Virus record (IMG/VR): IMGVR_UViG_3300025575_000011
Location: 1-64,000 of that record
Direction: 5' to 3' (one strand)
From: a virus
Taxonomy: Duplodnaviria > Caudoviricetes
Length of the DNA stretch: 64,000 nt
Shown: positions 2,305 through 59,438 of the stretch, piece after piece
Layout of the letters: each line of letters opens with the position of its first letter
How positions within the stretch are numbered: the stretch's first letter is position 1
Position numbers and translations under genes: made by a program
Notes under the pieces: generated by a model
What the model saw: the letters and a program-made list of their open reading frames with translations, nothing else
What the model was told of the DNA's origin: nothing
Databases searched by the model: none

Positions 2305-3321
2305 ATGATGTCCGAAAAGATAACCGACAATTTAGAGGAAGATAATTTATTCCAAGTTGATACTGCATTTAAAGAAGAATTTTTAGGAACACTAAAAAAG
2401 ACAACAAGAAAATTCTATCGTTATGTTTTAAAAAGAGCAGATTTTTATGAAAAACAACTCGGTATTAGTATGTTCGATTTTAATATGGAGCAAAGAGACG
2501 ACATGTTAACAGTTCAATTCAAAAACAAGTCTCAATGGGCTTTCCAAACTGTTAGATCACCATTAAAAAACTATGTGGACTACTGCATGTTTAAAAGTTT
2601 TACAGACAGGAATGAGAATATTTTCGAATTAATTCTTCCTAGTTCCTATGATAAGTATGTAAACCCACAGGCCGTTGAAAACTCATATATTCCTAAAGCT
2701 AGGGTTAGAGAATTAGAAGATTTATTGGTTAATGAACAAGACAAACTCTTCCTTGAATTATTAAGTTGGGGCACAAGAGGTCGTACAGAAAAAGGTAATA
2801 CGCTAGAAGAATTTATAAATTTAAAAGTAGAAGATGTAGATTTCCAAAAGAATACAATTAAACTATCTAAAAACAATATAACTGAAAAAAGAGTTTTATA
2901 TGTAGATGATTTTACTACTGATCTAGTAAAAAGAACTATTGAAAAAGGGTTTTATTTGTTCAATAATGGATTAAAAGGGAAAAAGAATAGTAAAGGAATT
3001 TACGAAAAAACAGATAAAGGATTCCAGATCAATGAAACTGAATATGTTTTCAGAATTCCGGGCAAAAACAAGTATGGACAAATTGATCATCAGTTAATTG
3101 CTAATAGAATACAAAGAATCCAAAAATGGACAAATACAAAGTATTTAAATATTTCTAGCCTCTACTTTTCAAGTATGATAGATAAGGCCAAGGAAATAAA
3201 AGCGAAAAAAGGTAAACTCACTAGACAGGATTATGTTGATATTAATGAGGAATTTTCATACGGAGCAGACGGAGAGATTTATCTGAATAAAATTAAGGAA
3301 ATGATGAGTTTCTATATCTAA
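2305..3321 (+). CDS. tyrosine-recombinase-fold protein, probably catalytically dead repressor (SPbeta YopR/MrpR/SroF-like)
   Basis: Box I-like GTRG...LEEFINLKVEDVD present; the expected HxxR box II position reads LNISSLYFS; 338 aa. Confidence 0.65.
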   Translation: MMSEKITDNLEEDNLFQVDTAFKEEFLGTLKKTTRKFYRYVLKRADFYEKQLGISMFDFNMEQRDDMLTVQFKNKSQWAFQTVRSPLKNYVDYCMFKSFTDRNENIFELILPSSYDKYVNPQAVENSYIPKARVRELEDLLVNEQDKLFLELLSWGTRGRTEKGNTLEEFINLKVEDVDFQKNTIKLSKNNITEKRVLYVDDFTTDLVKRTIEKGFYLFNNGLKGKKNSKGIYEKTDKGFQINETEYVFRIPGKNKYGQIDHQLIANRIQRIQKWTNTKYLNISSLYFSSMIDKAKEIKAKKGKLTRQDYVDINEEFSYGADGEIYLNKIKEMMSFYI

Positions 3322-3333
3322 AAGGAGGAAATC

Positions 3334-3735
3334 ATGCAAAATACACTAGAGACTATATGGCGTAAGTATGATGCGTTATTTTTTCTAAAAAATGAGTTAA
3401 ATAAAAAAGGCTATCCATCAAAAGATTTAGGGTTTATTGATCCTCAACTTGATCTTTTGATGGAACTTATTGAAATTGAAAGTCTAAATGTCATAAATTC
3501 TCTATTGAAAAAAACCTACTATCGCTTATTGGAAAAAATTATAAGAGGTATTGAATATATTCCTAGTATTTATTCAGAATCAGATAATTGGATTCTAAAT
3601 AAAATTGACGATGATAAAGAAGCTTGGATAGATAAAAATGTTTTGGTGATTTCAACTAAGAATAACATCTTAGTATTCAGTAAAAAATCTAGAAAAAGCG
3701 ATGGTAATTCTTTTACAGATGGGAAATGGCAATAG
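3334..3735 (+). CDS. hypothetical protein
   Basis: 133-aa ORF with strong RBS aaggagg. Confidence 0.65.
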   Translation: MQNTLETIWRKYDALFFLKNELNKKGYPSKDLGFIDPQLDLLMELIEIESLNVINSLLKKTYYRLLEKIIRGIEYIPSIYSESDNWILNKIDDDKEAWIDKNVLVISTKNNILVFSKKSRKSDGNSFTDGKWQ

Positions 3736-3749
3736 AAAGAAGGAACACT

Positions 3750-4151
3750 ATGAACATCGGGGAAAAGATTACTTCATATAAAGAGAAATTAAACTTTAGA
3801 GATTATAAAGAATTCTCTTCCGCAGCAGGAGTTAGTAATTCTTGGTTATTAGAATTAAGCAAGAAAACAGAAGTTTTGACTATTGATATAAACAATTTGG
3901 TCAAACTATGCGAGTATCTAAATGTAGATGTTCAACAGTTAATCAAAGATGATGTATTTGAAGAAAGTGATTCTATTAGTGTTAATCATATTATAGACTG
4001 CAATGATATAGGTATTCTACTCAAAGAATTAGCAACATTAGCAAATCAAACAGAATTAAAAATGGATGGGGTCGTAATGAATACTCGTGCAAAAGCTATT
4101 TTCAAGGATTCACTTTATGCAGTTACTATGCTAGTTAAACAACATTTATAA
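3750..4151 (+). CDS. XRE/Cro-CI family HTH regulator
   Basis: IGEKITSYKEK...KEFSSAAGVSNSWLLEL...LVKLCEYLNVDVQQL; start moved to ATG 3750 after gaagga. Confidence 0.75.
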   Translation: MNIGEKITSYKEKLNFRDYKEFSSAAGVSNSWLLELSKKTEVLTIDINNLVKLCEYLNVDVQQLIKDDVFEESDSISVNHIIDCNDIGILLKELATLANQTELKMDGVVMNTRAKAIFKDSLYAVTMLVKQHL

Positions 4152-4165
4152 CGGAGGAATAATCA

Positions 4166-4420
4166 ATGAATCCATATTACACAATAGATGATATAACTAC
4201 AACGAGAGTCCTTGGACTTATAGATAAATGCAAAGAATTAAATTTAGGTAATGTATCTTTTGTTTATTTTGCATTACCTAAACACGATGAGATTAGATTT
4301 CGTTTAACTGAGGATAATCATGGATGGGAATTAGTTATCATTACTAGAAGAACCGAAGAAGTAGATGTATATAGAATTACTGAAGATAAATTAGTATATC
4401 AGTACTCAGAAAAAGATTAA
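4166..4420 (+). CDS. hypothetical protein
   Basis: 84-aa ORF, RBS ggagga. Confidence 0.6.
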   Translation: MNPYYTIDDITTTRVLGLIDKCKELNLGNVSFVYFALPKHDEIRFRLTEDNHGWELVIITRRTEEVDVYRITEDKLVYQYSEKD

Positions 4421-4452
4421 TTTATCTTTCCCCATCTTTTTATTATTTATAC

Positions 4453-4481
4453 TTGACTTATAACTCAGGATAAACTATACT
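4453..4481 (+). promoter_or_regulatory. sigmaA-type promoter
   Basis: TTGACT-17 nt-TATACT. Confidence 0.7.
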
Positions 4482-4564
4482 ATGGTTAAGACATGAAAGG
4501 AGTTGAACAACTATGGCATTAATGCAAATGTAATATAATAAATATAGAAAGAGGTTAAAGTAGT

Positions 4565-5170
4565 TTGAGGAAAGTAATACTAAGCAACAGAAGGTTTTGC
4601 ATCTTTGGCTGTATTATATTCCTTATTGTTAGCTTGAATTTTAATCACCAAGTCATAGTCAGGAAAACAGTAATTGTGAATAATAATCTAAGTGTACGTG
4701 CAAATAATATCCTTAAATTGTTCAGAAGAAATTACATAGTAATTAAACAGGATAAAGTGGTAGAAGATGTAATTAATGTTGCACCAGTTATTAAACCTAA
4801 ATCAAACAATAAAATACTTATCATGACTATCACAGGATATGACTTATCATATCGTTCGACTCAAAAATCAAGGGGTTCTGAAGGTTTTGGATTGACTGCC
4901 ACAGGTTATAATCTCAAAGACCAAACAAGAGTTTCAGCAAGGACAATTGCTACAGATAATTCAATAGTACCTCTAGGATCAAAAGTAAAACTAACTTTTT
5001 TAGACCCAAAATATCAAAACTACTCAGGCATTTATACTTCGAGAGATACAGGAAATGGAGTCAAGGGACTACATATTGATTTATTCTTAGGCGATATGGG
5101 AAATCAGTCAAGCAAAGTTGCTTTAACTTTTGGAAGAACTAAGTGTGAATTAGAAATAATAAAGGAGTGA
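4565..5170 (+). CDS. 3D-domain (MltA-like) cell-wall protein with N-terminal membrane anchor
   Basis: TGY...TATG...IATDNSIVPLGSKV...RDTG..VKG.HIDLF pattern with three conserved Asp; hydrophobic N-terminus. Confidence 0.8.
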   Translation: MRKVILSNRRFCIFGCIIFLIVSLNFNHQVIVRKTVIVNNNLSVRANNILKLFRRNYIVIKQDKVVEDVINVAPVIKPKSNNKILIMTITGYDLSYRSTQKSRGSEGFGLTATGYNLKDQTRVSARTIATDNSIVPLGSKVKLTFLDPKYQNYSGIYTSRDTGNGVKGLHIDLFLGDMGNQSSKVALTFGRTKCELEIIKE

Positions 5171-44422: not shown

Positions 44423-44468
44423 ATAGGTAGTGGTAAGTATGATTATTTTGAGAGGAGGGTTAGAATTT

Positions 44469-45926
44469 ATGTTGGTTACTAAAGAAGTTGAAGTGGGATT
44501 ATCCTCAATAAATACTAAATACTATGAAAAATTAGGATATAAGATACCAAGGAGAATAGATAAATATGGAATAAATTGTGTTAAAAGAGGAACAAAAATT
44601 AGAGTAAAAACGCAAGATTTACAAGATAGGTGTAATTCGTTAGTTGATGTTATATGTGATGGATGTGAAAAAACATTAAATATAAAATGGAGTGACTATA
44701 AAAGAAGTGTAAAAGAAAATGGAGAATGTTATTGCTTTAAGTGTGGTAATGCAGGGCATAAGAAATGGGTTAGTTTCTATGAGTGGTGTTACCTTAATTT
44801 ATCTAAAGAAGATGCTGATAGGATATTATCTCGTTGGGACTATGATTTAAATGGAATAAACCCTATTGATGTTACCTATAGTTCTAAAGGGCTAAATGGA
44901 AAAGGATATTGGTTTAAATGTTTGACATATCATGAGCATGGATCAGAGTTAAGAGACATTAGTAATTTTACAAGTGGTGAAGTGGGGAGTATTTGTTGCA
45001 CCAAATGTAACAAAATTGCAGTCACCAATCCTGATTTGGTAGATTTTTTTGTTGATAAGGAAGATGTATTAAAATATTCAAGTGGCTCCGAAAAATCCAC
45101 TTTGATTAGATGCCCTGAATGTGAATTTCAAAATAAAAGAATTATTAAAAATTTTATACGATATGGAATTAATTGTCCTAAATGTTCCGACGGAGTACCA
45201 TATCCTGAAAAATTTATGTTTAGCGTTCTATGTCAACTAGATATAATATTTAAAACTCAGTTATCTAAATCTACTTTTGAATGGTGTGGTAAATACCAGT
45301 ATGATAACTTTATTTCAGAAATAAATTGCATAATCGAGACTCATGGGTTACAGCATTATGAAGAGAATGCTAATTGGAAAATGTCATTAGATAAAACGCA
45401 AGAGAATGATAAATTAAAGGAACAAAATGCTAAAGATAATAACATAGGGAATTATATAGTTTTAGATTGCAGGTATTCTCAACTAGAATGGATTAAAAAT
45501 AGTATAATGCACAGCGAGATTCCACGGTTATTAAACTTCAAAGAAGAAGATATTAATTGGCTACAATGCTCTGAATATGCTTGCAAAAACATGGTCAAGG
45601 AGGCATGTAATTTGTGGAATTCTGGAATCAATAAAACAATAATAATAGCAGATAAATTAAGGATTAGTAGAGCAACTGTATTAAGATACTTAAAACAAGG
45701 TGCAGAACTAAAGTGGTGCAAATATATTAATCACAGTAAAGTAATATGCCTAACTACAAATGAAATTTTCAATACACAAACAGAAGCGTCTAGAAAATAT
45801 AATATGTATAGTAGCAGTGATATTGCTCAATGTTGCAGACACAATAGACCATTTTCAGGTAAACATCCAGACACGGGAGAGAAACTTGTGTGGATGTATT
45901 ATGGAGAGTATCTATCTATAACTTAA
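44469..45926 (+). CDS. free-standing homing-endonuclease-like protein (Zn-ribbon repeats, Vsr/DUF559-like nuclease, NUMOD1-like tail)
   Basis: Repeated CxxC ribbons, CPKCSDGVPYPEK, YDNFI...IIETHGLQHY, VICLTTNEIF...EAS...IAQCC. Confidence 0.75.
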   Translation: MLVTKEVEVGLSSINTKYYEKLGYKIPRRIDKYGINCVKRGTKIRVKTQDLQDRCNSLVDVICDGCEKTLNIKWSDYKRSVKENGECYCFKCGNAGHKKWVSFYEWCYLNLSKEDADRILSRWDYDLNGINPIDVTYSSKGLNGKGYWFKCLTYHEHGSELRDISNFTSGEVGSICCTKCNKIAVTNPDLVDFFVDKEDVLKYSSGSEKSTLIRCPECEFQNKRIIKNFIRYGINCPKCSDGVPYPEKFMFSVLCQLDIIFKTQLSKSTFEWCGKYQYDNFISEINCIIETHGLQHYEENANWKMSLDKTQENDKLKEQNAKDNNIGNYIVLDCRYSQLEWIKNSIMHSEIPRLLNFKEEDINWLQCSEYACKNMVKEACNLWNSGINKTIIIADKLRISRATVLRYLKQGAELKWCKYINHSKVICLTTNEIFNTQTEASRKYNMYSSSDIAQCCRHNRPFSGKHPDTGEKLVWMYYGEYLSIT

Positions 45927-49341: not shown

Positions 49342-50244
49342 TTGTCCATGTTGTTCTGGGATTGCGGAAACAGCTATGGAAAAGCACGAGACTCTAAAGG
49401 AAGAGAATTAAAAATCCTATCAGTAATAGGCAAAGCACAAGAAACTTTTACAGAAAAACAACTATGGCAAATTGATGGAAATTATATCGGTGAAGATGCA
49501 ATTTTACATGGTTATGCTCAAGATTATTCCCTTGATGAAATCAAAACAGAACAATCTACATTTAAAACATTAACAAAATATGCTTTATGTAATTACAAAG
49601 GTGAGAATAAAATCGTTTTCTTGTTTCCATTTGAATCTTATTTCAGTGAAAAGAAACAAATTGTAGAAATGTTTTCAAGAAATATGGATATTGCTTATAA
49701 AATAGGAAATACTACTTACAATTATAATTTTAAACCTGAACTTATACGCTCACTTCCGCAAGGATACTGTGCAGGAATGGATTATTTTCTTGATGATGAA
49801 GGTAAAATAAAAGAAGAAATCCCAAATACAGTTTTAATAATTGATGTAGGAATGGGAACTGTAAACTATATTTATTTACTCAGAGGAGAAATTGTTAGGG
49901 AAATGTCTCATACAACTAATAATGGAATGCATCAGATTTATAAAAGAGGACTTCAAGGCAAAAAAATATATGAAGTTGATTTATTCAATGGTTTTAATTC
50001 AGTAGCTCATTTATATCCAGATCAAGCAACATTAATTAAGAGTGATATTTCAACTTATTACGAGTTAAAAAAATTAGATCAAATAGTTGTTGTAGGTGGA
50101 GGAGGGGAAGCAATATATCATTTCTTGCCTTGGACAAATAAGGTTTTGCACAAAGGACAATTTTCTAATGTTAGAGGTGCAAGTAAGGTGGTGCAAAATT
50201 TATCATGGGGGAAATCAGAACATTTAGAGATGATGATGTCTTAA
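49342..50244 (+). CDS. parM: ParM/StbA actin-like partition ATPase
   Basis: Phosphate-1 DCGNSYGK, phosphate-2 IDVGMGT, adenosine VVGGGG, PQG linker. Confidence 0.85.
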   Translation: MSMLFWDCGNSYGKARDSKGRELKILSVIGKAQETFTEKQLWQIDGNYIGEDAILHGYAQDYSLDEIKTEQSTFKTLTKYALCNYKGENKIVFLFPFESYFSEKKQIVEMFSRNMDIAYKIGNTTYNYNFKPELIRSLPQGYCAGMDYFLDDEGKIKEEIPNTVLIIDVGMGTVNYIYLLRGEIVREMSHTTNNGMHQIYKRGLQGKKIYEVDLFNGFNSVAHLYPDQATLIKSDISTYYELKKLDQIVVVGGGGEAIYHFLPWTNKVLHKGQFSNVRGASKVVQNLSWGKSEHLEMMMS

Positions 50245-50435
50245 AACCTTTGTTAGATACAATTCCTAGAAGAAAGATGGGTAAGATAATTAGGAGAGCG
50301 TTGTATGATTATTTTTTCAAGGGAAAAGATATAGTAATGGCAGAGGATGAGGATTGTTATATAGAAGTGGTTGAGGTTGAAGAGGTTAAAATTAAACCAG
50401 TAAAAGAAATTAAATTTGATATGTTTGAAGATTAG
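50205..50435 (+). CDS. ParR-like adaptor
   Basis: Overlaps the parM end; short helix pair (KMGKIIRRALYDYF) with acidic tail. Confidence 0.6.
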   Translation: MGEIRTFRDDDVLKPLLDTIPRRKMGKIIRRALYDYFFKGKDIVMAEDEDCYIEVVEVEEVKIKPVKEIKFDMFED

Positions 50436-50461
50436 TCCTGAGAAATCAGGGCTTTTCTTTT
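50433..50461 (+). terminator. intrinsic terminator
   Basis: agtcctgagaaatcagggct plus T-rich tail. Confidence 0.65.
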
Positions 50462-50719: not shown

Positions 50720-50962
50720 ATGTTAAGCAAAGTAGAAATTGATATTCTAATGCATCTGAAAAGTGAGGGATTAGTTGATGCTATGAACAGCAGAACCATT
50801 AAAAACGTCAGTATTTCAATTGATCTCAATCTCTTTCGTACACGCAATAATTTGTATCACTTGCAATTGTTAGGAATGGTTGGACTTGGATTTAAGGAGA
50901 TTCGGTCAAACACTTATTATTTGACACAGAAAGGGATTGATGAAATTGAGAAAATTGGGTGA
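50720..50962 (+). CDS. winged-helix DNA-binding protein
   Basis: EIDILMHL...TIKNVS...RNNLYHL..LGMV...YYLTQKG. Confidence 0.65.
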   Translation: MLSKVEIDILMHLKSEGLVDAMNSRTIKNVSISIDLNLFRTRNNLYHLQLLGMVGLGFKEIRSNTYYLTQKGIDEIEKIG

Positions 50963-51510
50963 TGTTTTAAAGATCAGAAGTAAAAGTAGTATTAGAGAAT
51001 CTAAAGAAGTTAAGAAGATCATTCCGAAACGATGCATCAAATGTAACAGTGAAAATATCATCGGTCATGGATTAGTAATTGGAATGGCTAAAATTAATTT
51101 AGATACTTTAGAAGTTGATGAATGCGGTGATGAATTTGAGATTTATGACGAAGAGAATTTAGAGTATCGGTGTGGCGATTGTGATTTTAGTTGGGAGTAA
51201 GGAGGGATTATCAATGACCAATTACACTGTTTTAAAACCTGAAAATGTTATCTTTAGTAGAGTAGAAAAACGTCTTAGAGGTAGAACTTATAATTGTGGA
51301 ATATGCGAAACCACAAGTCTTATTCTCACTGATAAATCCATTATCACAAAGGAAAATGATTCACAAATTATTCACGCTTTAAATTATTGTCCAATATGCG
51401 ATCAGAGATTTTCTATCAGAGTAGATTTAGAGGATAGTAGTGTATTTTTGATTAAGTTTCCTGATTGGGAAGATGACGATAATATTTATCCTAAGAGGAG
51501 AGTTGACTGA
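50937..51510 (+). CDS. two small Zn-ribbon hypothetical proteins (50937..51200 and 51214..51510)
   Basis: CIKC...CGDC and CGIC...CPIC. Confidence 0.5.
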
Positions 51511-51728: not shown

Positions 51729-52010
51729 ATGGAAGCAGAGTTTACAGACTTTAGAGAGAATACTAATTGGGTTAATGGAATAGTCGGAGACAACATTAGT
51801 TTCAGTGCTAAATTATACAATGAACCTTCAAAATATTGCTTAAATGGAGGAAGAGTCAGTAATATGTTTATGTACAAAGGTCATGTTTGTATCTTTAATT
51901 ACAATTATGATGATCATAGTGATGGTATTGAGATTAATGAAGAGAATGTGGAGTATTTTGAATGTGTTATGGAATTGTTAGAAAATAGTCCAGAAAGAGA
52001 TTTTGATTAG
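51729..52010 (+). CDS. hypothetical protein, paralog 1
   Basis: WVNG...FSAKLY..PSKY..NGGRVS; homologous to 52022..52291. Confidence 0.65.
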   Translation: MEAEFTDFRENTNWVNGIVGDNISFSAKLYNEPSKYCLNGGRVSNMFMYKGHVCIFNYNYDDHSDGIEINEENVEYFECVMELLENSPERDFD

Positions 52011-52021
52011 GAGGAATTGAT

Positions 52022-52291
52022 ATGGAAGCAATTTTCACAAGATTTGATAACGAAGACAATTGGGTTCAGGGTGAATGTGGCGGATTTAGTTTTGACGCTA
52101 AACTGTTCAATACTGGTTCAAAGTATGGAATTGATGGTGGAAGAATATCAAAATTATGCATTCAAAATCAATATGGAATGATGGCAAATTTTGATCGAGG
52201 ATGGGATATTGAACCTCCAGAGGAGCATATGGATTACTATTTAGCTATTGTTGATTTGTTGGAGAATAGTGATGTTAGGAATTTTGGGTAA
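52022..52291 (+). CDS. hypothetical protein, paralog 2
   Basis: WVQG...FDAKLF..GSKYGIDGGRISKL...NFDRGWD. Confidence 0.65.
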   Translation: MEAIFTRFDNEDNWVQGECGGFSFDAKLFNTGSKYGIDGGRISKLCIQNQYGMMANFDRGWDIEPPEEHMDYYLAIVDLLENSDVRNFG

Positions 52292-53407
52292 GGGTTAAGT
52301 TAGGATTAAAATTTGAGGAGGATGAGATTATGAATGTTTCACTATTGTTTCTTCTTAAAGTAGTTTTATATTCAGGTGCAATTATCATTGTTACCAAAGC
52401 AGTACGATATGTATATAAAGAGGAGGAAAGTTAATGAAAATCATTGGATTTTATCACAATCCTAAATTAATCAATAGTTGTAAGGTTGTAATTCCACAAG
52501 TTCTTAAAGGTTTAATGGTTATGGGATTCACTTTTACCTTTACAGATGACGCTGTATCACTATTAGCCCCTTATATTGATATTAATGGAATTTACCAATG
52601 TACTAATCATGGTGTGATTGATGGAAATTTAGTTAAACATCTATACCAAGCAGTAAATGATTCAATGTCGCATAATTTAATTAAGTAGAAGGGAGAAATT
52701 ATGCAAAATTTATTATTAGTTCTTAATATCACTTCATATGTAGTTTTGATCTTCTGTGGCATTCAAGCAATGAAATTTGTGTATGGGGTTCAAGCAATCA
52801 AAATTGTATATTCAATTTTCAAAAGTCAAAAATTATCTGTTAAATAAGAGGAGGAATTAGCGTGAGAAGGCTAATCAACAAAAAATTAGTAGTAAGTGCA
52901 ACATGTTTAGTTGGTGGATATTTAATAATGCAAATAAACGAGGGTGCTTATGTTGAATCATGGTTGTTTTACAAAATGGTTGCAGAGTTATTAGGGTTTG
53001 CAGTTTTTAGTATTGGACTAATTGGTGTCTTGGGGATTGGAGTTAAATCAGGGATTAAAGGATTGAAAGGTTAATTAAATTAAGAGGAGTGTGTAAATTA
53101 TGTATCAAGAAATTGCTCAGATTCTAGCCATAATTGCCATAACTATTGTAGGTATATATCCTCTATTATCAAAGAGAACTAAGCCTCCAATGTGGTATAT
53201 AAAAGGTACTTTAGGGATATCCGCAGTTTATACAATCGGAATAGTTGCCATTGTAAAACTAGGTTTAAACTAAAGAAAACCAAAAAAATACCCCTCAAAT
53301 GAGGGGATTGGGAAAAGGGTATAATCATTCTTAGATTTTCTTCACATACATGCGTATGCAAATAAATATGCGTGGGGTATCTAAATTATGCCAGTACGTT
53401 TAGTACT

Positions 53408-53503
53408 TTATTTCAAAAGACTTGATGCAATATTTGCCAATTGGATTACGCTATACCCTGTAATTCCTAAACCAGTTAAGATCATTCCAATTCCTAAAAA
53501 CAT
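53408..53503 (-). CDS. 31-aa hydrophobic peptide on the opposite strand
   Basis: RBS aagaagg; MFLGIGMILTGLGITGYSVIQLANIASSLLK. Confidence 0.45.
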   Translation of the reverse strand: MFLGIGMILTGLGITGYSVIQLANIASSLLK

Positions 53504-53767
53504 ATTAAAACCTTCTTTCAATTTTTATTTTATTTCTCTTTAGTCGGTTTTGAATTTCTTGCTTACGACCATAATTGTAGTATCACCCATTTCAAAAATT
53601 ATATACATGAAAGGAGAAAAAATTATGATGAAAACTTTAGAAACAATTTTAAACATTATTTCTTATGGGTTTTTAGTGACAATTGGGATTGTTATTATCA
53701 GAATTGGGATGAAGGTTACTGGATTTAAAATCTTCGGCAAGAGATAAAGTTTAAAGGAGGAATATAC

Positions 53768-53998
53768 ATGTTAGTTGAACCATTTCACACCAGTGTATAT
53801 CCCATATTAGTTCAAATAGCAATGGTGATGGTTTTGTACTCTGTGTGTGTTCTCGGCTACACGCAAATACGAAGACCAGACGTTGCTCAGATGGTAGAAA
53901 AATTAAGAGGGTTATTGTTCGGTTTTCTATTAGTTAAGTGTTCTTACCTTATTGTAATGTTTATTAATAACACTATTGATAAAATTGTAATTAAATGA
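53768..53998 (+). CDS. VirB2/TrbC pilin-like two-TM protein
   Basis: Two hydrophobic helices split by a basic loop (IRRPD...EKLRGLLFGFLLV). Confidence 0.35.
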   Translation: MLVEPFHTSVYPILVQIAMVMVLYSVCVLGYTQIRRPDVAQMVEKLRGLLFGFLLVKCSYLIVMFINNTIDKIVIK

Positions 53999-54509
53999 GG
54001 TGACATTTTATGGCTGGATTCTTTAGTGACATAACTGTAAATCCTTTTATTCCGAATCCCGCTTTTGCTAAACCAGAGGAAGCTAATTTTATAGAGAAAG
54101 GAATTTCTAATGGAATAGAAAAGGGGTTGGGGAACGTTGGTGACAAGGTTCTCCAAGCAGGAAAAGTTAAGACAGAATCAATGATGCACAATCTACCTGA
54201 AATTGCGACTCTAGCATTGGTTATGTATCTCATATATTTAGGGTATATGTCTTTCATTAGGAAGGATGGACGCAAAAGAGAAATTGATTTCTCAAGAATG
54301 TATGTAGTTTTTATGGTCTATATTGTCTTCAAGTTATTCTGGAAGGTAGTATTAAAAATCTAGTTCATTAAATTAAGAGGAGAGTGTTAATTATGATTAA
54401 AAATTTATTAAAAGGTTTAGGTTTATTGGCAATATTTTATGTAGGAATCTTAACCATAAATGGATTCTTAGAAAAGGTAATCACAAATATCAAATAAGGA
54501 GGATTTAAA

Positions 54510-56906
54510 ATGCAACAAAAAGCATTAATCAACTTTAGAAAAAGAGAGATCCTTCCAACAAAACTTAAAAGAGAAACCTTTGGATACAAAGCATACTCTA
54601 TTACGCCCTCTCGTTTTATCGAGAGTGGCGAGGCACTTAAACAAATCTTAGATACTGCAAGTGCAATTCATGAAGGAATGTTTAAATATGATTACCTTAA
54701 TAAATCATTTGTAATAAACCAATCAAGTCCTATTTATTATGAAGTTTTATATGAAGGCAAAAATATTTCATTCAATTATATCATACCCGATAAATATACA
54801 GAGGTATTAGTAAATAAAATTGATCGTGTATTTCGTGTGGCTGCGGTAAAGGAACTAGAAGAAGATTATTTCCATAATTTTGTAAATAAATATTATTGTA
54901 CTTTTGCACAGAAAAAACATTTTATGTTTTCATTAAATACTAATGCAGATGATAGTTTATTAGAAAATTTATTGTCAGTTATAAATTCAGTCCAACCTGA
55001 CGATAAAGTTTTACTTCAAGTTGCATTAAATCCCCTTAATGAAAAATGGAAAGAAGATTGGGCTAAAGCAAACATTAAACGTAAAAATGGGGAAGAACTG
55101 GCAGTTCATCCTAGTAAAGCAATTTCTGTTATTGAAAGCATAATGGGTACTGTTGAAAATGCTCTAGATTTAGTAGACATAATTGTTGGAGTAGATAAGA
55201 AAGAAAAAGAAGCATATTCAAAAAAGGAAAAGCAAATTGATAGTTGGGGAGGGAATATGTATCGCAATGCCAATCTGACAAAACAAAAGATAAATGGAAA
55301 TGGATTTGAATGTCAGATTAGACTTTATTGCACTAGTGAAGAAAGGACAAGATACTATCAAAAGATATTCTCAGGAGTTTTTAAGGTGTTGGATGCAGAG
55401 CAAGAGTTGGAATTTACTACAATAGGAAAACATAAGAGCAAGGATAGAGAATTTGAAGGGCATTTAACTAGTAAGAATGTATTTTCTACGAAAGAGATCA
55501 TGCCATTCTTGAGATTACCCAATCGCAAAATGCAGGGAGACTTCAAGGAGAGTATGAAAGCAATTCAAATTACTGAGGTTCCTATACCAGAGGAATTATT
55601 AAATGGAGAAATTCCTATAGGAGAAGCATCATATAAGGAAAATAAATTTATAGCTTATTGGAACACGAGAAACAAAGATATTGCTGCAATGCACAAAATA
55701 TTAGCTGGTATGCAAAGAGCAGGTAAAACAAACTACCTAATACACTTTGCAATAAAATCTATGAAAGCAGGTCAATCAGTTTTTGTAATTGACAGCATTA
55801 AAAATTGTGAACTAGCCGATGCAATAAGAGATCACCTGCCACCAGAATTCCATCATAAAATTATTGTATTGGATTATAGTAATCTAGACTATCTACTTTC
55901 ATTAGCATGGAGTGAACTCAGAAAACATCAAGGAGAAACAGACAAGAAGCACAGAATGATGTTAGCAAGTCAAATTGCAGGAAATCTTGAATCATTTATT
56001 GAGAGCGTTGGAGCAGGATCAGTTCAAGAGAAATTTAGTGCACGAATGAAACGATTCTTAGCATGTGCAGCAAAGCTAGTTTTATCACAAGAAGGAACGA
56101 ATATTAAAGATGTTTTAGATGTGCTTCAAGAGAGGGATATTAGAGATGAATTTATTGAAAGATCAGGTTTGCCTGAATCAAATATTATTGTTCAAGAATT
56201 AAGAAGATTAGACGACCCTAAAACTGAAGGGACAAGATATGATTTAATAGGAGGAATTATAGACAGAGCATCAATAATGACAAATGATTACCTTATGGAA
56301 TTGTTGCTTAGTGTAAAACCCAATGATGAGATTGACTTTAGATATTGGGCTGATAATGGATACTGTGTGTTAATTAAAGTTTCCGAACTTAAAGTAAGCA
56401 GAACTGCTCTAAGACCTTTGGTTTCATTTATCTATTCAAAATTATGGTTGAGTATGTTTTCTAGAGGAGAACAAAAAAGTCCTAGAATCACAAATGTAAT
56501 ACTTGATGAGATCCACAACTTCCCAGAGGTATGTAATATGATCAAGGGAAATTGTCGTGAATCGGCTAAATACGGATTAAGTTATGTTTTTACTAGCCAT
56601 ATGCTCACAGACCTTAAAGGATTGTTACCAATTATTAAAGGGTCTGGTGCTAGTTTTATGTTATTTAAAACCACTAAAGAGAATTTGAGGTTATTGGAAG
56701 AAGAATTAATGCAAGGTGGAATTACGATAGAAGAAGCTCTGGAACTTAAAAAATTCCACACTATTAACATCGTCAATTATGATAGGGAATATGCAGTATT
56801 TACAACGAAAGCACCTGATTTAATAGACAAGTGTTATAAACTCATTGATAGAAGTCATATAGATTTAGAATGTAGTATGAAATATGGGAGTCCTTTTGAA
56901 GATTAG
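54510..56906 (+). CDS. FtsK/HerA-superfamily P-loop ATPase (VirB4/coupling-protein-like)
   Basis: Walker A AGMQRAGKT, VFVID, Walker B VILDEIHNF, KYGL...TSH; long N-terminal domain; 798 aa. Confidence 0.75.
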   Translation: MQQKALINFRKREILPTKLKRETFGYKAYSITPSRFIESGEALKQILDTASAIHEGMFKYDYLNKSFVINQSSPIYYEVLYEGKNISFNYIIPDKYTEVLVNKIDRVFRVAAVKELEEDYFHNFVNKYYCTFAQKKHFMFSLNTNADDSLLENLLSVINSVQPDDKVLLQVALNPLNEKWKEDWAKANIKRKNGEELAVHPSKAISVIESIMGTVENALDLVDIIVGVDKKEKEAYSKKEKQIDSWGGNMYRNANLTKQKINGNGFECQIRLYCTSEERTRYYQKIFSGVFKVLDAEQELEFTTIGKHKSKDREFEGHLTSKNVFSTKEIMPFLRLPNRKMQGDFKESMKAIQITEVPIPEELLNGEIPIGEASYKENKFIAYWNTRNKDIAAMHKILAGMQRAGKTNYLIHFAIKSMKAGQSVFVIDSIKNCELADAIRDHLPPEFHHKIIVLDYSNLDYLLSLAWSELRKHQGETDKKHRMMLASQIAGNLESFIESVGAGSVQEKFSARMKRFLACAAKLVLSQEGTNIKDVLDVLQERDIRDEFIERSGLPESNIIVQELRRLDDPKTEGTRYDLIGGIIDRASIMTNDYLMELLLSVKPNDEIDFRYWADNGYCVLIKVSELKVSRTALRPLVSFIYSKLWLSMFSRGEQKSPRITNVILDEIHNFPEVCNMIKGNCRESAKYGLSYVFTSHMLTDLKGLLPIIKGSGASFMLFKTTKENLRLLEEELMQGGITIEEALELKKFHTINIVNYDREYAVFTTKAPDLIDKCYKLIDRSHIDLECSMKYGSPFED

Positions 56907-56917
56907 GAGGGAGTTAA

Positions 56918-57457
56918 ATGAAAAGTATTACGGATTTTCGTATTACTACAAATTGGCATGAGGTTGATAACTTTCATGCCTCTCCCCATTCAGGTTTAGA
57001 TTTGGCCTGTGTTACTGGGACAAAAATTTATTCCCAAGATTCAGGGACAATCTCTCTTACAATTGATCAATGGTTGGGTAATACTGTACGTTTAAAGCTC
57101 GATGATGGTAGGATTATAGTATATGGACACTTGAGTAAGATAAACGTCACACAAGGGCAACGTGTGGGTGTCAATGAACTTTTAGCTGAAACAGGAGGTG
57201 CTGTGGGCAGTCCAAACAGCGGAAGAACAACTGCTGAACATTTGCATGTGAGCGAGTACAGTTTTGATGGCACTACTTTAATTGACCCAACTAATTATCT
57301 ATTCCATCATGAGTTGGTTGCCCAAAGTAATTCAAGTCCATTTTTAGTCCCTACCATGCTTATTCTATTATTTATTATCTTTTTTAAGTTCCGAAAGTTT
57401 TTTATATATGGATTTGGAATATGTGCTATTCTAGGAATTATTTTTATCGCTTCATAA
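56918..57457 (+). CDS. M23 metallopeptidase with C-terminal membrane anchor
   Basis: HSGLD (HxxxD), YGHLS, HLH motif; hydrophobic C-terminus. Confidence 0.88.
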   Translation: MKSITDFRITTNWHEVDNFHASPHSGLDLACVTGTKIYSQDSGTISLTIDQWLGNTVRLKLDDGRIIVYGHLSKINVTQGQRVGVNELLAETGGAVGSPNSGRTTAEHLHVSEYSFDGTTLIDPTNYLFHHELVAQSNSSPFLVPTMLILLFIIFFKFRKFFIYGFGICAILGIIFIAS

Positions 57458-57723: not shown

Positions 57724-58124
57724 ATATAGAGGAGTAAAGTATTATTTATTAGTTATATGAGCATAATGAAATAAGGAGTGATTAGTTTGCTTCTTATTTC
57801 ATTTTAGGCGACAATTTGAAAGGTAGTGATATGGGTGGGATATATGAGTAATATATTTAAAGGAGTTAGGAGATTGACTGTAAGTAGAAGCCAAATGATT
57901 GATTATATAGGTGAACGGATGGAACATGTTGATGAAGAAATTATTGATCAGGTTTTGAGTGAGGAAAAGAATTTTCTTAGAGAGAAAAACATTATGTATT
58001 GAATTTTAACGTTTTAGGTCTATTTTATTTGATTTATGGATATTATTAATATATACTCAAAAGAAGGGACTTGATTTATATGGAATTAGTGCCAAAAATA
58101 GAATTTTTAATGGAGGGTATGAAC

Positions 58125-59438
58125 ATGAGTAGAAAGAATAAAGCACAAGAAGAAACTGCATCTAGTTCTGAAATGGAGAATGACAGTATTTGGGATAAAG
58201 GTACTAGGGATGGTTCAGAAGAACACGAGAACACTGAAGAAAATGCAATGCCTAAGTTAATGAGTTTGAGCGAAAAGACAAAAATGGAAGAGCAAGAAAC
58301 TGAATCAGATAGTCAAGAGAAAAATGAAAAACAATTAAAAGCAGAAGCAAAGTTAAAACGAGAAGAGAATAAAATGTTTAAGGAATTAACTAAACAAGAC
58401 AATAAAGAATGGGAATTTGAGAATGTTTATCCAGTTTATCGTAATGGAAAAATTCATAAATGGATGACTACTTTAACTTCTGAGAGGATTAATGATCTTT
58501 TCAAATCCGGGGTAATTTACTATGATTACGAGATCCAAAGAGGCTACCGTAAAAATATACAAGGAGAAAAGAGACCCCTTATAACAAACCGTCACGTAGA
58601 CGATATCTTAAAACCTATGCAATCTGGGAAAATTGCAGGAGGTGCTTTGACTTTCTGTTACTTTAAAGAGTATGAAGAAGAGTTGGAGTATAATGAGGAA
58701 GAAAATACTTTAAAAGTAAACAACAGATTAGCTGTGGTAGATGGTGGTCACAGGGTTTTCAGTTGCATCAAGATGGTCAAATTAAATAAAAAGGACAAAT
58801 CTAATCCAAATCCTGCATTATTTGAATATCCCGTGTTTTTAGAATTTTTGTCAAGGGAAGAAGCTATGGCATTGTTCAGTGAATACGCAAACGCAGGAAA
58901 GAAAATTGGGAAAAATAAAGCAGAAGCATTAAATGTTTTCGACCCTTCGCATGATATGGCAAAAGAAATTATTATTAATTCAGAACTACACAATAAGATA
59001 GAAACAATAAGTTCTAATCCTAAAGAAAACAATATCATGCTTTTTAGCACACTTATGAACGGTATTAGAATTTTTAAACCACAGACCCAAAAGGATTCAG
59101 ACCAAATTGTCGAATTCCTATCAAAGTTCTGGTCTGAATTGATTTATCTATTTAAAGATCAAATGGGTAATATGGAATTCAAACAGCGGAGGGAAATTCG
59201 GAAACAGACATTTTTGCTTGAACCGATGTTTCTTAATGGATTCTTCCATGTAGCTAAATATCTAATGGATAATCCTGAAAATTGGGTTGAGAAACTAAGT
59301 AAATTAAAAGATGATAAAATTTTCTTCTCAAGAGACAATAAACTTTGGCTAAATATTCTCAGAGAAGGTGGGAAGACAATCCACACAAGTCTTACGCAAA
59401 CCTTCGTAATTGATGAAATGGTCAATAAAGTAAAGTAA
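58125..59438 (+). CDS. second DGQHR/DndB-like (ParB-fold) protein with acidic N-terminal extension
   Basis: YDYEIQRG, LAVVDGGHRV, EAMALFSEYAN; start moved to ATG 58125. Confidence 0.7.
   Translation: MSRKNKAQEETASSSEMENDSIWDKGTRDGSEEHENTEENAMPKLMSLSEKTKMEEQETESDSQEKNEKQLKAEAKLKREENKMFKELTKQDNKEWEFENVYPVYRNGKIHKWMTTLTSERINDLFKSGVIYYDYEIQRGYRKNIQGEKRPLITNRHVDDILKPMQSGKIAGGALTFCYFKEYEEELEYNEEENTLKVNNRLAVVDGGHRVFSCIKMVKLNKKDKSNPNPALFEYPVFLEFLSREEAMALFSEYANAGKKIGKNKAEALNVFDPSHDMAKEIIINSELHNKIETISSNPKENNIMLFSTLMNGIRIFKPQTQKDSDQIVEFLSKFWSELIYLFKDQMGNMEFKQRREIRKQTFLLEPMFLNGFFHVAKYLMDNPENWVEKLSKLKDDKIFFSRDNKLWLNILREGGKTIHTSLTQTFVIDEMVNKVK

Follow-up and report, generated by a model that had tools for sequence, protein, structure and literature searches.

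A VirB4-type ATPase module in a large tailed phage of a probably Clostridium-like anaerobe and its kinship with the phage DNA translocation operon

In this article, I will discuss a cluster of small genes, an ATPase gene and a peptidase gene (positions 52330-57457) in a stretch of viral DNA, hereafter the window, which comprises the first 64 kb of the 84,150-bp IMG/VR virus record IMGVR_UViG_3300025575_000011, and I will argue that the cluster probably encodes a membrane translocation or assembly module that is derived from a type IV secretion system (T4SS) and homologous to the DNA translocation operon of phages. An original prediction, made from the sequence alone, had read the same genes as an undescribed non-lytic export route. 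However, the module had already been described bioinformatically, since Pathria et al. (2012; PMC3357382) gave the name 'DNA translocation operon' to orf200-207 of phage 0305phi8-36, which include relaxase-like, coupling ATPase, VirB6-like and MreB-like genes, and recognised its counterpart in SPO1 (gp27.3-27.9). Similarly, Godinho et al. (2018; PMC6316719) found SPP1 gp32 to be non-essential, related it by HHpred to TrwB, VirB4 and FtsK, and proposed a translocon of gp32 with the membrane proteins gp31.1 and gp31.2, and a phage paper of 2022 reported TrbC/VirB2, Replic_Relax and FtsK/SpoIIIE-family genes in Bacillus pumilus phages (PMC9658697). The locus discussed here is a new Clostridium-type member of this described operon and not a new kind of system. 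What is new is that the ATPase, earlier called VirD4- or TrwB-like, is by its predicted fold VirB4-type over its whole length, and that the module, together with a membrane-anchored M23 hydrolase, extends to phages of anaerobic, probably Clostridium-like hosts.

The evidence that carries this conclusion begins with the ATPase (54510..56906, + strand), a protein of 798 amino acids (aa) with no transmembrane (TM) helix. The large ATPase of the original prediction is indeed present, with intact Walker A (GMQRAGKT) and Walker B (ILDE) motifs and a fold of the VirB4 type, and alignments of 60-70 diverse homologues show no variation at G405, K406, D666 and E667. The family phrog_5156 matches the protein end to end (E 1e-110), and a profile search recovered 1281 cluster representatives at E < 1e-10, nearly all of them 750-850 aa long. 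When 60 family members were compared with sequence models, nine gave weak matches to TrwB_AAD_bind and none matched a VirB4 model (CagE_TrbE_VirB and AAA_10 included). In addition, a precomputed match to DUF8128 was weak, phmmer against PDB sequences returned noise only, and the family profile gave weak P-loop matches to RecA, HerA, TrwB, DptH, DotL, B204 and VirB4 that do not discriminate among these proteins.

The assignment to VirB4 comes from the predicted structure. In an AlphaFold model of the ATPase built on 70 diverse homologues (mean predicted local distance difference test score, pLDDT, of 87.6), the C-domain (350-790) matched VirB4 of Thermoanaerobacter in the PDB (4ag6_A; Z 26.3, root-mean-square deviation (rmsd) 3.6, 341 residues aligned), followed by TrwB (Z 25.8, residues 348-790), the C-domain of DndH (Z 25.3) and HerA (Z 24.2), so that the modelled domain belongs to the VirB4/VirD4/HerA group without a choice among its members. 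The N-domain (residues 1-356) was folded alone (pLDDT 86.7) and compared with 48,161 PDB representatives, among which the sole clear match was TrwK/VirB4 of R388 (7o42_A; Z 13.7, rmsd 3.5, 233 aligned residues), the next-best chain reaching Z 8.1 and all others 6.7 or less, and Foldseek on this domain returned TrwK chains only (E 3e-4 to 4e-3). It has the alpha/beta architecture of VirB4 and not the TM anchor plus all-alpha architecture of TrwB/VirD4, and since an N-domain whose sole clear match is VirB4 is combined with the lack of a TM helix, the ATPase as modelled is VirB4-type in both domains and not a coupling protein, which refines the VirD4- or TrwB-like labels given by databases and earlier papers. 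Of the comparisons that the original prediction had proposed, the one with VirB4 held for the N-domain, and that domain showed no resemblance to packaging or Zot-type ATPases. A Zot-like or filamentous-phage ATPase, considered as a separate candidate, was ruled out by this N-domain plus the tail and endolysin genes of the record. The best viral structural matches of the ATPase are in the Bacillus phages JL, G and 0305phi8-36.

Furthermore, the family is widespread. With the window ATPase as the query, tblastn matched 121 phage records, of Bacillus, Geobacillus, Lysinibacillus, Brevibacillus, Clostridium and Terrisporobacter, and with SPO1 gp27.4 it matched 146, of the same genera minus Terrisporobacter, plus Alicyclobacillus and one Microcystis phage; no Staphylococcus, Listeria, Streptococcus, Lactococcus or Enterococcus record was among these matches. 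The phages concerned include SPO1-like and CP-51-like myoviruses, Tsamsa-like jumbo siphoviruses, phage G, 0305phi8-36, D6E, Terrisporobacter TPDSL_ph2, Clostridium phiCp-D and SPP1, and the family is also found in 54 plasmids (32 of Clostridium, 21 of Bacillus and one of Alicyclobacillus), typed as non-mobilizable in every case. Homologues in SPO1 (gp27.4), CP-51, Tsamsa, D6E and TPDSL_ph2, and likewise those in Clostridium botulinum and Clostridium tetani plasmids, cover about 87-98% of the ATPase at 21-29% identity, the tblastn match between the window ATPase and SPO1 gp27.4 having an E of 1e-36 and a coverage of 88%. SPP1 gp32, the product of gene 32, was matched at E 5e-9, SPP1 and phiCp-D match the C-terminal 60-64% of the ATPase only, and the search with SPO1 gp27.4 reaches ORF201 of 0305phi8-36. 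In phiCp-D (locus L024, 4169-6584; the compared loci are cited here by such labels) the homologue is present as two overlapping open reading frames (ORFs) of 179 and 631 aa, a possible split, frameshift or sequencing error. The named hosts are nearly all endospore formers (the one Microcystis phage stands apart); this pattern does not follow phylogeny and is a correlation among named records, most of the 1281 metagenomic relatives being unlabelled.

The second line of evidence lies in the small membrane proteins encoded just upstream of the ATPase, whose TM helices were called at the Kyte-Doolittle threshold and whose conservation was assessed in 12 related metagenomic or viral loci with an ATPase identity of 42-70%. 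These loci share the order of a minus-strand peptide, a 40-aa protein, a 76-aa protein, a 117-aa protein and the ATPase, and since the order of the 40-, 76- and 117-aa genes, the ATPase gene and usually the M23 gene recurs in the 12 loci, the arrangement is more than chance. A search for related loci with an alignment of closer homologues retrieved clade members only. The first gene of this conserved core lies in a + strand ORF of 65 aa (53550-53747), whose likeliest true start, ATG 53625, is preceded 8 nt 5' by AAAGGAG and yields a single-TM protein of 40 aa (53625..53747) with homologues of 34-41 aa in 11 of the loci. The 76-aa protein (53768-53998, + strand) is a two-TM hairpin with a basic loop, 35-88% identical across the 12 loci, which makes it better conserved than the ATPase and the best conserved of the module (in one locus its identity reaches 88% and that of the ATPase 59%). 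The 117-aa protein (54010-54363, + strand) has a hydrophilic, conserved N-terminal part of 60 aa and then a C-terminal two-TM hairpin with a K/R-rich loop, is 50-67% identical in the 12 loci and, by analogy, sits in a virB2-like position; a profile search with its family gave 46 clusters, all of the same clade, with no named relatives and no Pfam match. Directly 5' of the ATPase, in what would be the virB3-like position, a + strand ORF of 37 aa (54384-54497), probably translated as 34 aa from ATG 54393, encodes a single-TM peptide of 34-37 aa with a ribosome-binding site (RBS), and locus L011 has an unrelated 50-aa gene in its place. Language-model searches led from the 76-aa protein to CedA1, T4SS_pilin and DUF3852 with weak scores of 0.84-0.86, under the lead threshold of 0.9, and protein-atlas searches of the small proteins gave sub-threshold leads only, to TIGR03745 clusters as well.

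The same arrangement is found at a much greater distance, one to three small TM ORFs abutting the ATPase gene on its 5' side in all of about 24 loci with 20-70% ATPase identity. In some distant loci the upstream protein is of ~130 aa, with a signal-peptide-like start and a two-helix mature part, and approaches the TrbC/VirB2 model (25.6 bits in pCLJ and 27.3 bits in Bacillus phage 035JT001, for a cut-off of 27.9) and, in 035JT001, the T4SS_pilin model (24.6 bits, cut-off 26.6). The 76- and 117-aa proteins of the window share with these distant proteins a hairpin topology and a basic loop, and the succession of small TM genes and then the ATPase gene would, by analogy, mirror the virB2-virB3-virB4 order. 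The idea that T4SS-type parts stand together here has been borne out, in the form of a conserved module with a VirB4-fold ATPase, hairpin proteins in what would be the virB2/virB3 position and a wall hydrolase.

The third part is the M23/LytM metallo-endopeptidase (56918..57457, + strand; 179 aa), which has a C-terminal two-helix membrane hairpin and matches PF01551 with 60.3 bits (cut-off 28.7; E 2e-16), as expected from the earlier claim of a membrane-anchored M23 peptidase. The residues H24, D28, H71, H108 and H110 (HxxxD ... H ... HxH) do not vary among 10 sequences, of which Tsamsa gp259 is one, and both the catalytic residues and the hairpin, whose loop reads KFRK, are kept in eight clade relatives and in gp259, which is the same M23-plus-hairpin protein encoded beside the Tsamsa ATPase even though the two ATPases are only 22% identical. 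The gene lies directly 3' of the ATPase gene in eight related loci, is missing in L007/L008, is upstream and shorter in L011, and is absent from seven of seven randomly chosen distant loci. The protein also gives a weak match to the SpoIIQ model (E 3e-5). A role as the phage endolysin was considered and ruled out because a separate endolysin is encoded at positions 71342-72412 of the record.

The original prediction had counted nine small membrane proteins, and all nine + strand ORFs, like the ATPase and M23 genes, were confirmed within 52330-57457, eight of the nine with at least one predicted TM helix. Only the 40-, 76- and 117-aa genes are conserved, however. The five tightly packed ORFs at 52330..53273, four with TM helices, are on sequence comparison outside the conserved core: they encode 34 aa (52330-52434; GGAGG RBS), 84 aa (52434-52688; GGAGG RBS; no predicted TM helix, alone among the nine), 48 aa (52701-52847; GGAG RBS), 70 aa (52862-53074; GGAGG RBS) and 57 aa (53100-53273; AGGAG RBS). 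No counterpart of the 34-, 84-, 48-, 70- and 37-aa ORFs was found in the 12 related loci, the 57-aa ORF has one in three of the 12, and all-against-all blastp of ten small peptides revealed no convincing paralogy. Translation signals are nonetheless good throughout, seven of the nine ORFs having a GGAG-type RBS, GGAGG in five cases, before the start as listed, and the 65- and 37-aa ORFs having an internal ATG that is better spaced behind an RBS than the listed start. The array is split off from the core by a hydrophobic peptide gene on the minus strand (53408..53521; 31 aa from ATG 53503 or 37 aa from TTG 53521), with a strong terminator at 53306-53291 on the same strand, and its product is 57-68% identical, in the same position, in 11 related loci; candidate roles are those of a type-I-toxin-like peptide and of an additional membrane subunit. 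With three small genes in the core and a variable array set apart by this minus-strand unit, the phrase 'nine small membrane proteins' overstates the module, and the claim that all genes are co-oriented holds for the named ORFs, all of which are on the + strand, but not for the region, given a conserved minus-strand gene inside it. The co-occurrence survey that had been suggested came out in the same divided manner, the core being kept in the 12 related and in distant loci and the M23 gene in two distant lineages, with the five peptides not conserved.

Now considering what such a module might do, the steps can be set out conditionally. The VirB4-type ATPase, as a hexamer, would dock at the cytoplasmic face of the membrane through its small hairpin partners and would spend ATP in one of two ways, either extracting hairpin subunits from the bilayer to build a short conduit or forcing a macromolecule through it, and the M23 enzyme would open the thick peptidoglycan locally. 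The most likely cargo would be the DNA of the element itself, brought up by the actin-like partition system encoded nearby, and the destination a neighbouring cell or the forespore; virions would not be cargo. The linkage to actin-type segregation genes, and elsewhere to a relaxase-family gene, points to DNA, and if the module is what I take it to be, DNA is a tentative choice of cargo, and like the direction it is much more doubtful than the module itself and clearly more likely wrong than right. The full version, in which a minimal, actin-fed machine of VirB4 plus pilin-like proteins, belonging to the phages and plasmids of spore formers, moves a double-stranded DNA (dsDNA) genome without a virion through a membrane or septum into a forespore or neighbouring cell, is a step less likely again and is offered as a speculation.

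Several observations weigh against translocation. The ATPase itself has no Pfam match above the cut-off, no NCBIfam match at E <= 0.01 and no matching VirB4 model, and a canonical VirB4 is not known to move DNA unaided. Sequence and profile searches find no similarity of the 76- and 117-aa proteins of the window to VirB2 or VirB3, and by hhalign the window-clade 76/117-aa proteins show no similarity to the 130-aa or 82-89-aa proteins of the distant loci, TrbC-like ones among them. The 84-kb record (about 51% complete) yielded neither a VirB6-like polytopic protein nor a VirD4-like coupling protein or a relaxase; it contains no ORF of at least 100 aa with at least three TM helices, so that the earlier statement that VirB6 was not recognised stands for about half of the genome, and no second large Walker-A translocase. 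VirB8 was not found in the record either, no fold-based search for it having been made. In addition, the M23 domain lacks a signal peptide, so that its export would require an unusual N-out topology, which is predicted from the positive-inside rule alone, and the actin-like gene forms a transcription unit of its own in this element and may simply be a plasmid partition system. Finally, deletion of the operon in 0305phi8-36 (PMC3357382) and disruption in SPP1 (PMC6316719) caused no growth defect, and a literature search found no paper with a functional test of the module.

The strongest rival of this main reading, with which it overlaps, is carriage into spores, which I hold to be possible but rather unlikely: the module and an actin filament would place or pump the genome into the forespore, or anchor it at the pole or septum, and the target of the LytM/M23 enzyme would be the septal wall, in a part comparable to that of SpoIIQ-type LytM proteins in the channel between mother cell and forespore. 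Nearly all named carrier phages and plasmids come from endospore-forming genera, strictly lytic phages, which would gain little from conjugation, carry the family as well, and it is dispensable for vegetative growth (PMC3357382; PMC6316719), all of which would suit spore carriage, as would the linkage to actin-type segregation genes and the weak SpoIIQ match of the M23 protein. However, this support is a matter of correlation only, with no host label on most of the 1281 metagenomic relatives, and SpoIIIE already moves DNA into the forespore. A more doubtful proposal is superinfection exclusion, in which an early membrane complex would block or reverse the entry of DNA from rival phages or conjugative elements, the ATPase expelling that DNA or remodelling the entry site; in SPP1 the genes are indeed among the early or moron-type non-essential ones (PMC6316719). 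The family occurs in lytic and temperate phages and plasmids alike, the set of small membrane proteins is variable, as would be expected under conflict, and PADLOC gives a weak match to mad8 (E 5e-7). That match is to a generic P-loop, however, and no defence system was matched by PADLOC beyond it, the linkage to actin-like, Replic_Relax and wall-hydrolase genes would be left unexplained, and no exclusion system is known to rely on a VirB4-type ATPase.

Very improbable is the non-lytic extrusion of virus particles or effectors, in the style of filamentous phages or enveloped viruses, which the original prediction had favoured from the presence together of an ATPase, small 'coat-like' membrane proteins and a wall hydrolase, and for which one could add that the FtsK/HerA/VirB4 superfamily includes the packaging ATPases of membrane-containing viruses (B204 was matched weakly). 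But tail proteins, a tape measure bearing a lytic domain and a separate endolysin are all encoded in the record, so that non-lytic particle release is unlikely; the window is filled with the replication genes of a large tailed phage, homologues of the module occur in strictly lytic SPO1 and SPP1 and in lytic CP-51, and the N-domain is VirB4-like and unlike a packaging or Zot-type ATPase. The idea that there is no machine at all, the ATPase with one or two partners having another role such as cytoplasmic nucleic-acid remodelling and the M23 enzyme and peptides being unrelated morons, can draw on the five of nine small ORFs that are not conserved, on the inconstant M23 gene (missing in L007/L008, moved in L011, absent in the seven random distant loci) and on HerA-type relatives that act on DNA in the cytoplasm, but I give it hardly any weight, since every locus examined has small TM partners right next to the ATPase, the same hairpin M23 protein adjoins the ATPase in Tsamsa at 22% ATPase identity, and VirB4-type N-domains sit on membrane partners in known systems.

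To return to the translocation module, its surroundings include the genes that bear on its cargo. An actin-like ParM/Alp protein of 300 aa (49342..50244, + strand; Pfam ALP_N and MreB-like_C, phrog_691) is related to SPO1 gp27.9 (28% identity, E 3e-7) and to orf207 of 0305phi8-36 (E 1e-10), and a terminator-like site lies 3' of its gene at 50434-50453. An ALP_N gene is found upstream of the ATPase gene in L007, L009, L011, L014, L018, L022, L031 and L032, and also in SPO1, Tsamsa, D6E and 0305phi8-36; accompanied by a small following gene, it lies 1-3 kb upstream in the window, in most clade loci, in these four phages and in three of the four randomly chosen distant loci with enough upstream sequence. 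Because this linkage to the ATPase persists in phages that are strictly lytic (SPO1, 0305phi8-36), the actin-like gene may serve the module beyond plasmid partition. In the compared loci L001, L026 and L027 the gene lies at 3962-4981, 1851-2681 and 2540-3532. The small following gene of the window (50205..50435, + strand; 76 aa), conserved after the ALP gene in L018, L014, L007 and L008, is a candidate ParR-like adaptor by its position, with no family match. On the other side of the module, Replic_Relax (PF13814) proteins are encoded directly 3' of the ATPase gene in SPO1 (gp27.3), Tsamsa (gp256) and 0305phi8-36 (orf200), and phmmer with gp27.3 finds none in the window between 47 and 61 kb or in the 12 clade loci. 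Their place is filled by a DGQHR/DndB-like gene (58071..59438, + strand; 455 aa; phrog_5732; TIGR03187 at E 4e-11, below the cut-off), which follows the ATPase or M23 gene in nine related loci, Pfam DndB matches being found among the related loci; its membership of the module is uncertain. A paralogue (phrog_5732) lies at 903-2279, and no other dnd genes accompany the pair.

Between the actin-like gene and the array lie further small genes. A winged-helix protein of 80 aa (50720..50962, + strand), a candidate regulator, has homologues in eight related loci and a weak match to HTH_45 (E 0.011). It is followed by two small ORFs (87 and 112 aa; 50937-51510) with paired CxxC motifs, zinc-ribbon-like, the first conserved in three related loci, and by tandem DUF7678 paralogues at 51729-52010 and 52022-52291 (PF24726, E 1.5e-23 for the second; phrog_4709), of which L018 has one copy. 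As for the element as a whole, the record is rated about 51% complete and the window has a GC content of about 31%. Among the replication genes that occupy the window, typical of a large tailed phage, are those for a DnaE-type polymerase, a DnaB helicase, a DNA ligase and the anaerobic reductase NrdD; ParA is encoded along with the actin-like ParM/Alp protein, and downstream of the window the same record carries the tail proteins, tape measure and endolysin already mentioned. These tail, replication, anaerobic NrdD and ParA/ParM genes show the element to be a large tailed phage that infects an anaerobe and carries maintenance genes of the plasmid type, and the host is probably Clostridium-like; a Clostridium sp. 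label is attached to one relative of the 117-aa protein, and related contigs reach 133-175 kb. Nucleotide searches of the 6-kb region against phage and plasmid collections gave no match, an Rfam scan of 49-60.8 kb gave nothing meaningful, and a scan for sigma-70-like promoters found fewer sites than in shuffled sequence, consensus scans being uninformative at 31% GC. The record also holds paralogous genes resembling HNH/homing endonucleases (phrog_4538 with phrog_559), at 44430-45926 of the window and at 72413-73912 of the record (8413-9912 of L028), and an additional HNH gene at 16181-17188 of L028.

Why should this matter to those who study phages of spore formers? The family, with its 1281 cluster representatives, is large: textbook phages (SPO1, SPP1 and CP-51) carry it, as do jumbo phages and large plasmids of Clostridium and Bacillus. 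Should the module turn out to move DNA, our view of how large phages and phage-plasmids persist in spore formers would have to change, and a very small model of a T4SS-derived motor would be at hand. Were the movement of dsDNA without a virion to prove true, it would be a third route of phage persistence or spread beside lysis and lysogeny, and the module would be the simplest working T4SS derivative in bacteria.

Among known systems, a parallel in concept is TraB of Streptomyces, an FtsK-type membrane-anchored translocase with a clt recognition site, with which the module would share the idea of a relaxase-less or near-minimal motor of the FtsK/HerA superfamily moving an element's DNA between adjoining Gram-positive compartments; the window ATPase differs in being VirB4-type and without a TM helix. 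The Ced/Ted DNA import systems of Crenarchaeota, in which CedB works with the two-TM proteins CedA1 and CedA2 and the polytopic CedA, similarly join a minimal VirB4/HerA-type ATPase to tiny hairpin proteins and lack the rest of a T4SS, and a CedA1 cluster is a language-model neighbour of the 76-aa protein (score 0.86, below the lead threshold); however, no CedA-like polytopic protein was found in the record, the domain of life and the cell envelope are different, and no sequence-level evidence of kinship was obtained. Also comparable are the conjugative T4SSs (TrwK/TrwM/TrwL of R388 and VirB4 of Thermoanaerobacter pseudethanolicus), with which the window module has in common the two-domain fold and Walker motifs of VirB4, small hairpin genes followed by the ATPase gene, a wall hydrolase and, in distant relatives, TrbC/VirB2-like partners, and from which it differs in its residence in tailed phages, lytic ones included, and in the lack of a match to VirB4 sequence models. 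The closest of all is the DNA translocation operon (0305phi8-36/SPO1, SPP1 gp31.1/gp31.2/gp32 and Tsamsa gp256-263), which shares with the window a homologous ATPase, small membrane proteins directly upstream of it, an actin-like gene farther upstream and residence in phages of spore-forming Firmicutes, Tsamsa also having the M23 protein with its TM hairpin. Compared with that operon, the window clade has a DGQHR/DndB-like gene instead of Replic_Relax (a MobC-type relaxase-like gene) and no six-TM protein of the orf203 type found in 0305phi8-36, the small membrane proteins are unrelated in sequence, five extra variable peptide genes are present, and the phage has an anaerobic, probably Clostridium-like host and plasmid maintenance genes. 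The M23 hydrolase, the DGQHR gene at the relaxase-like position and the extra peptide genes are the lineage-specific complement with which this Clostridium-type member extends the described operon.

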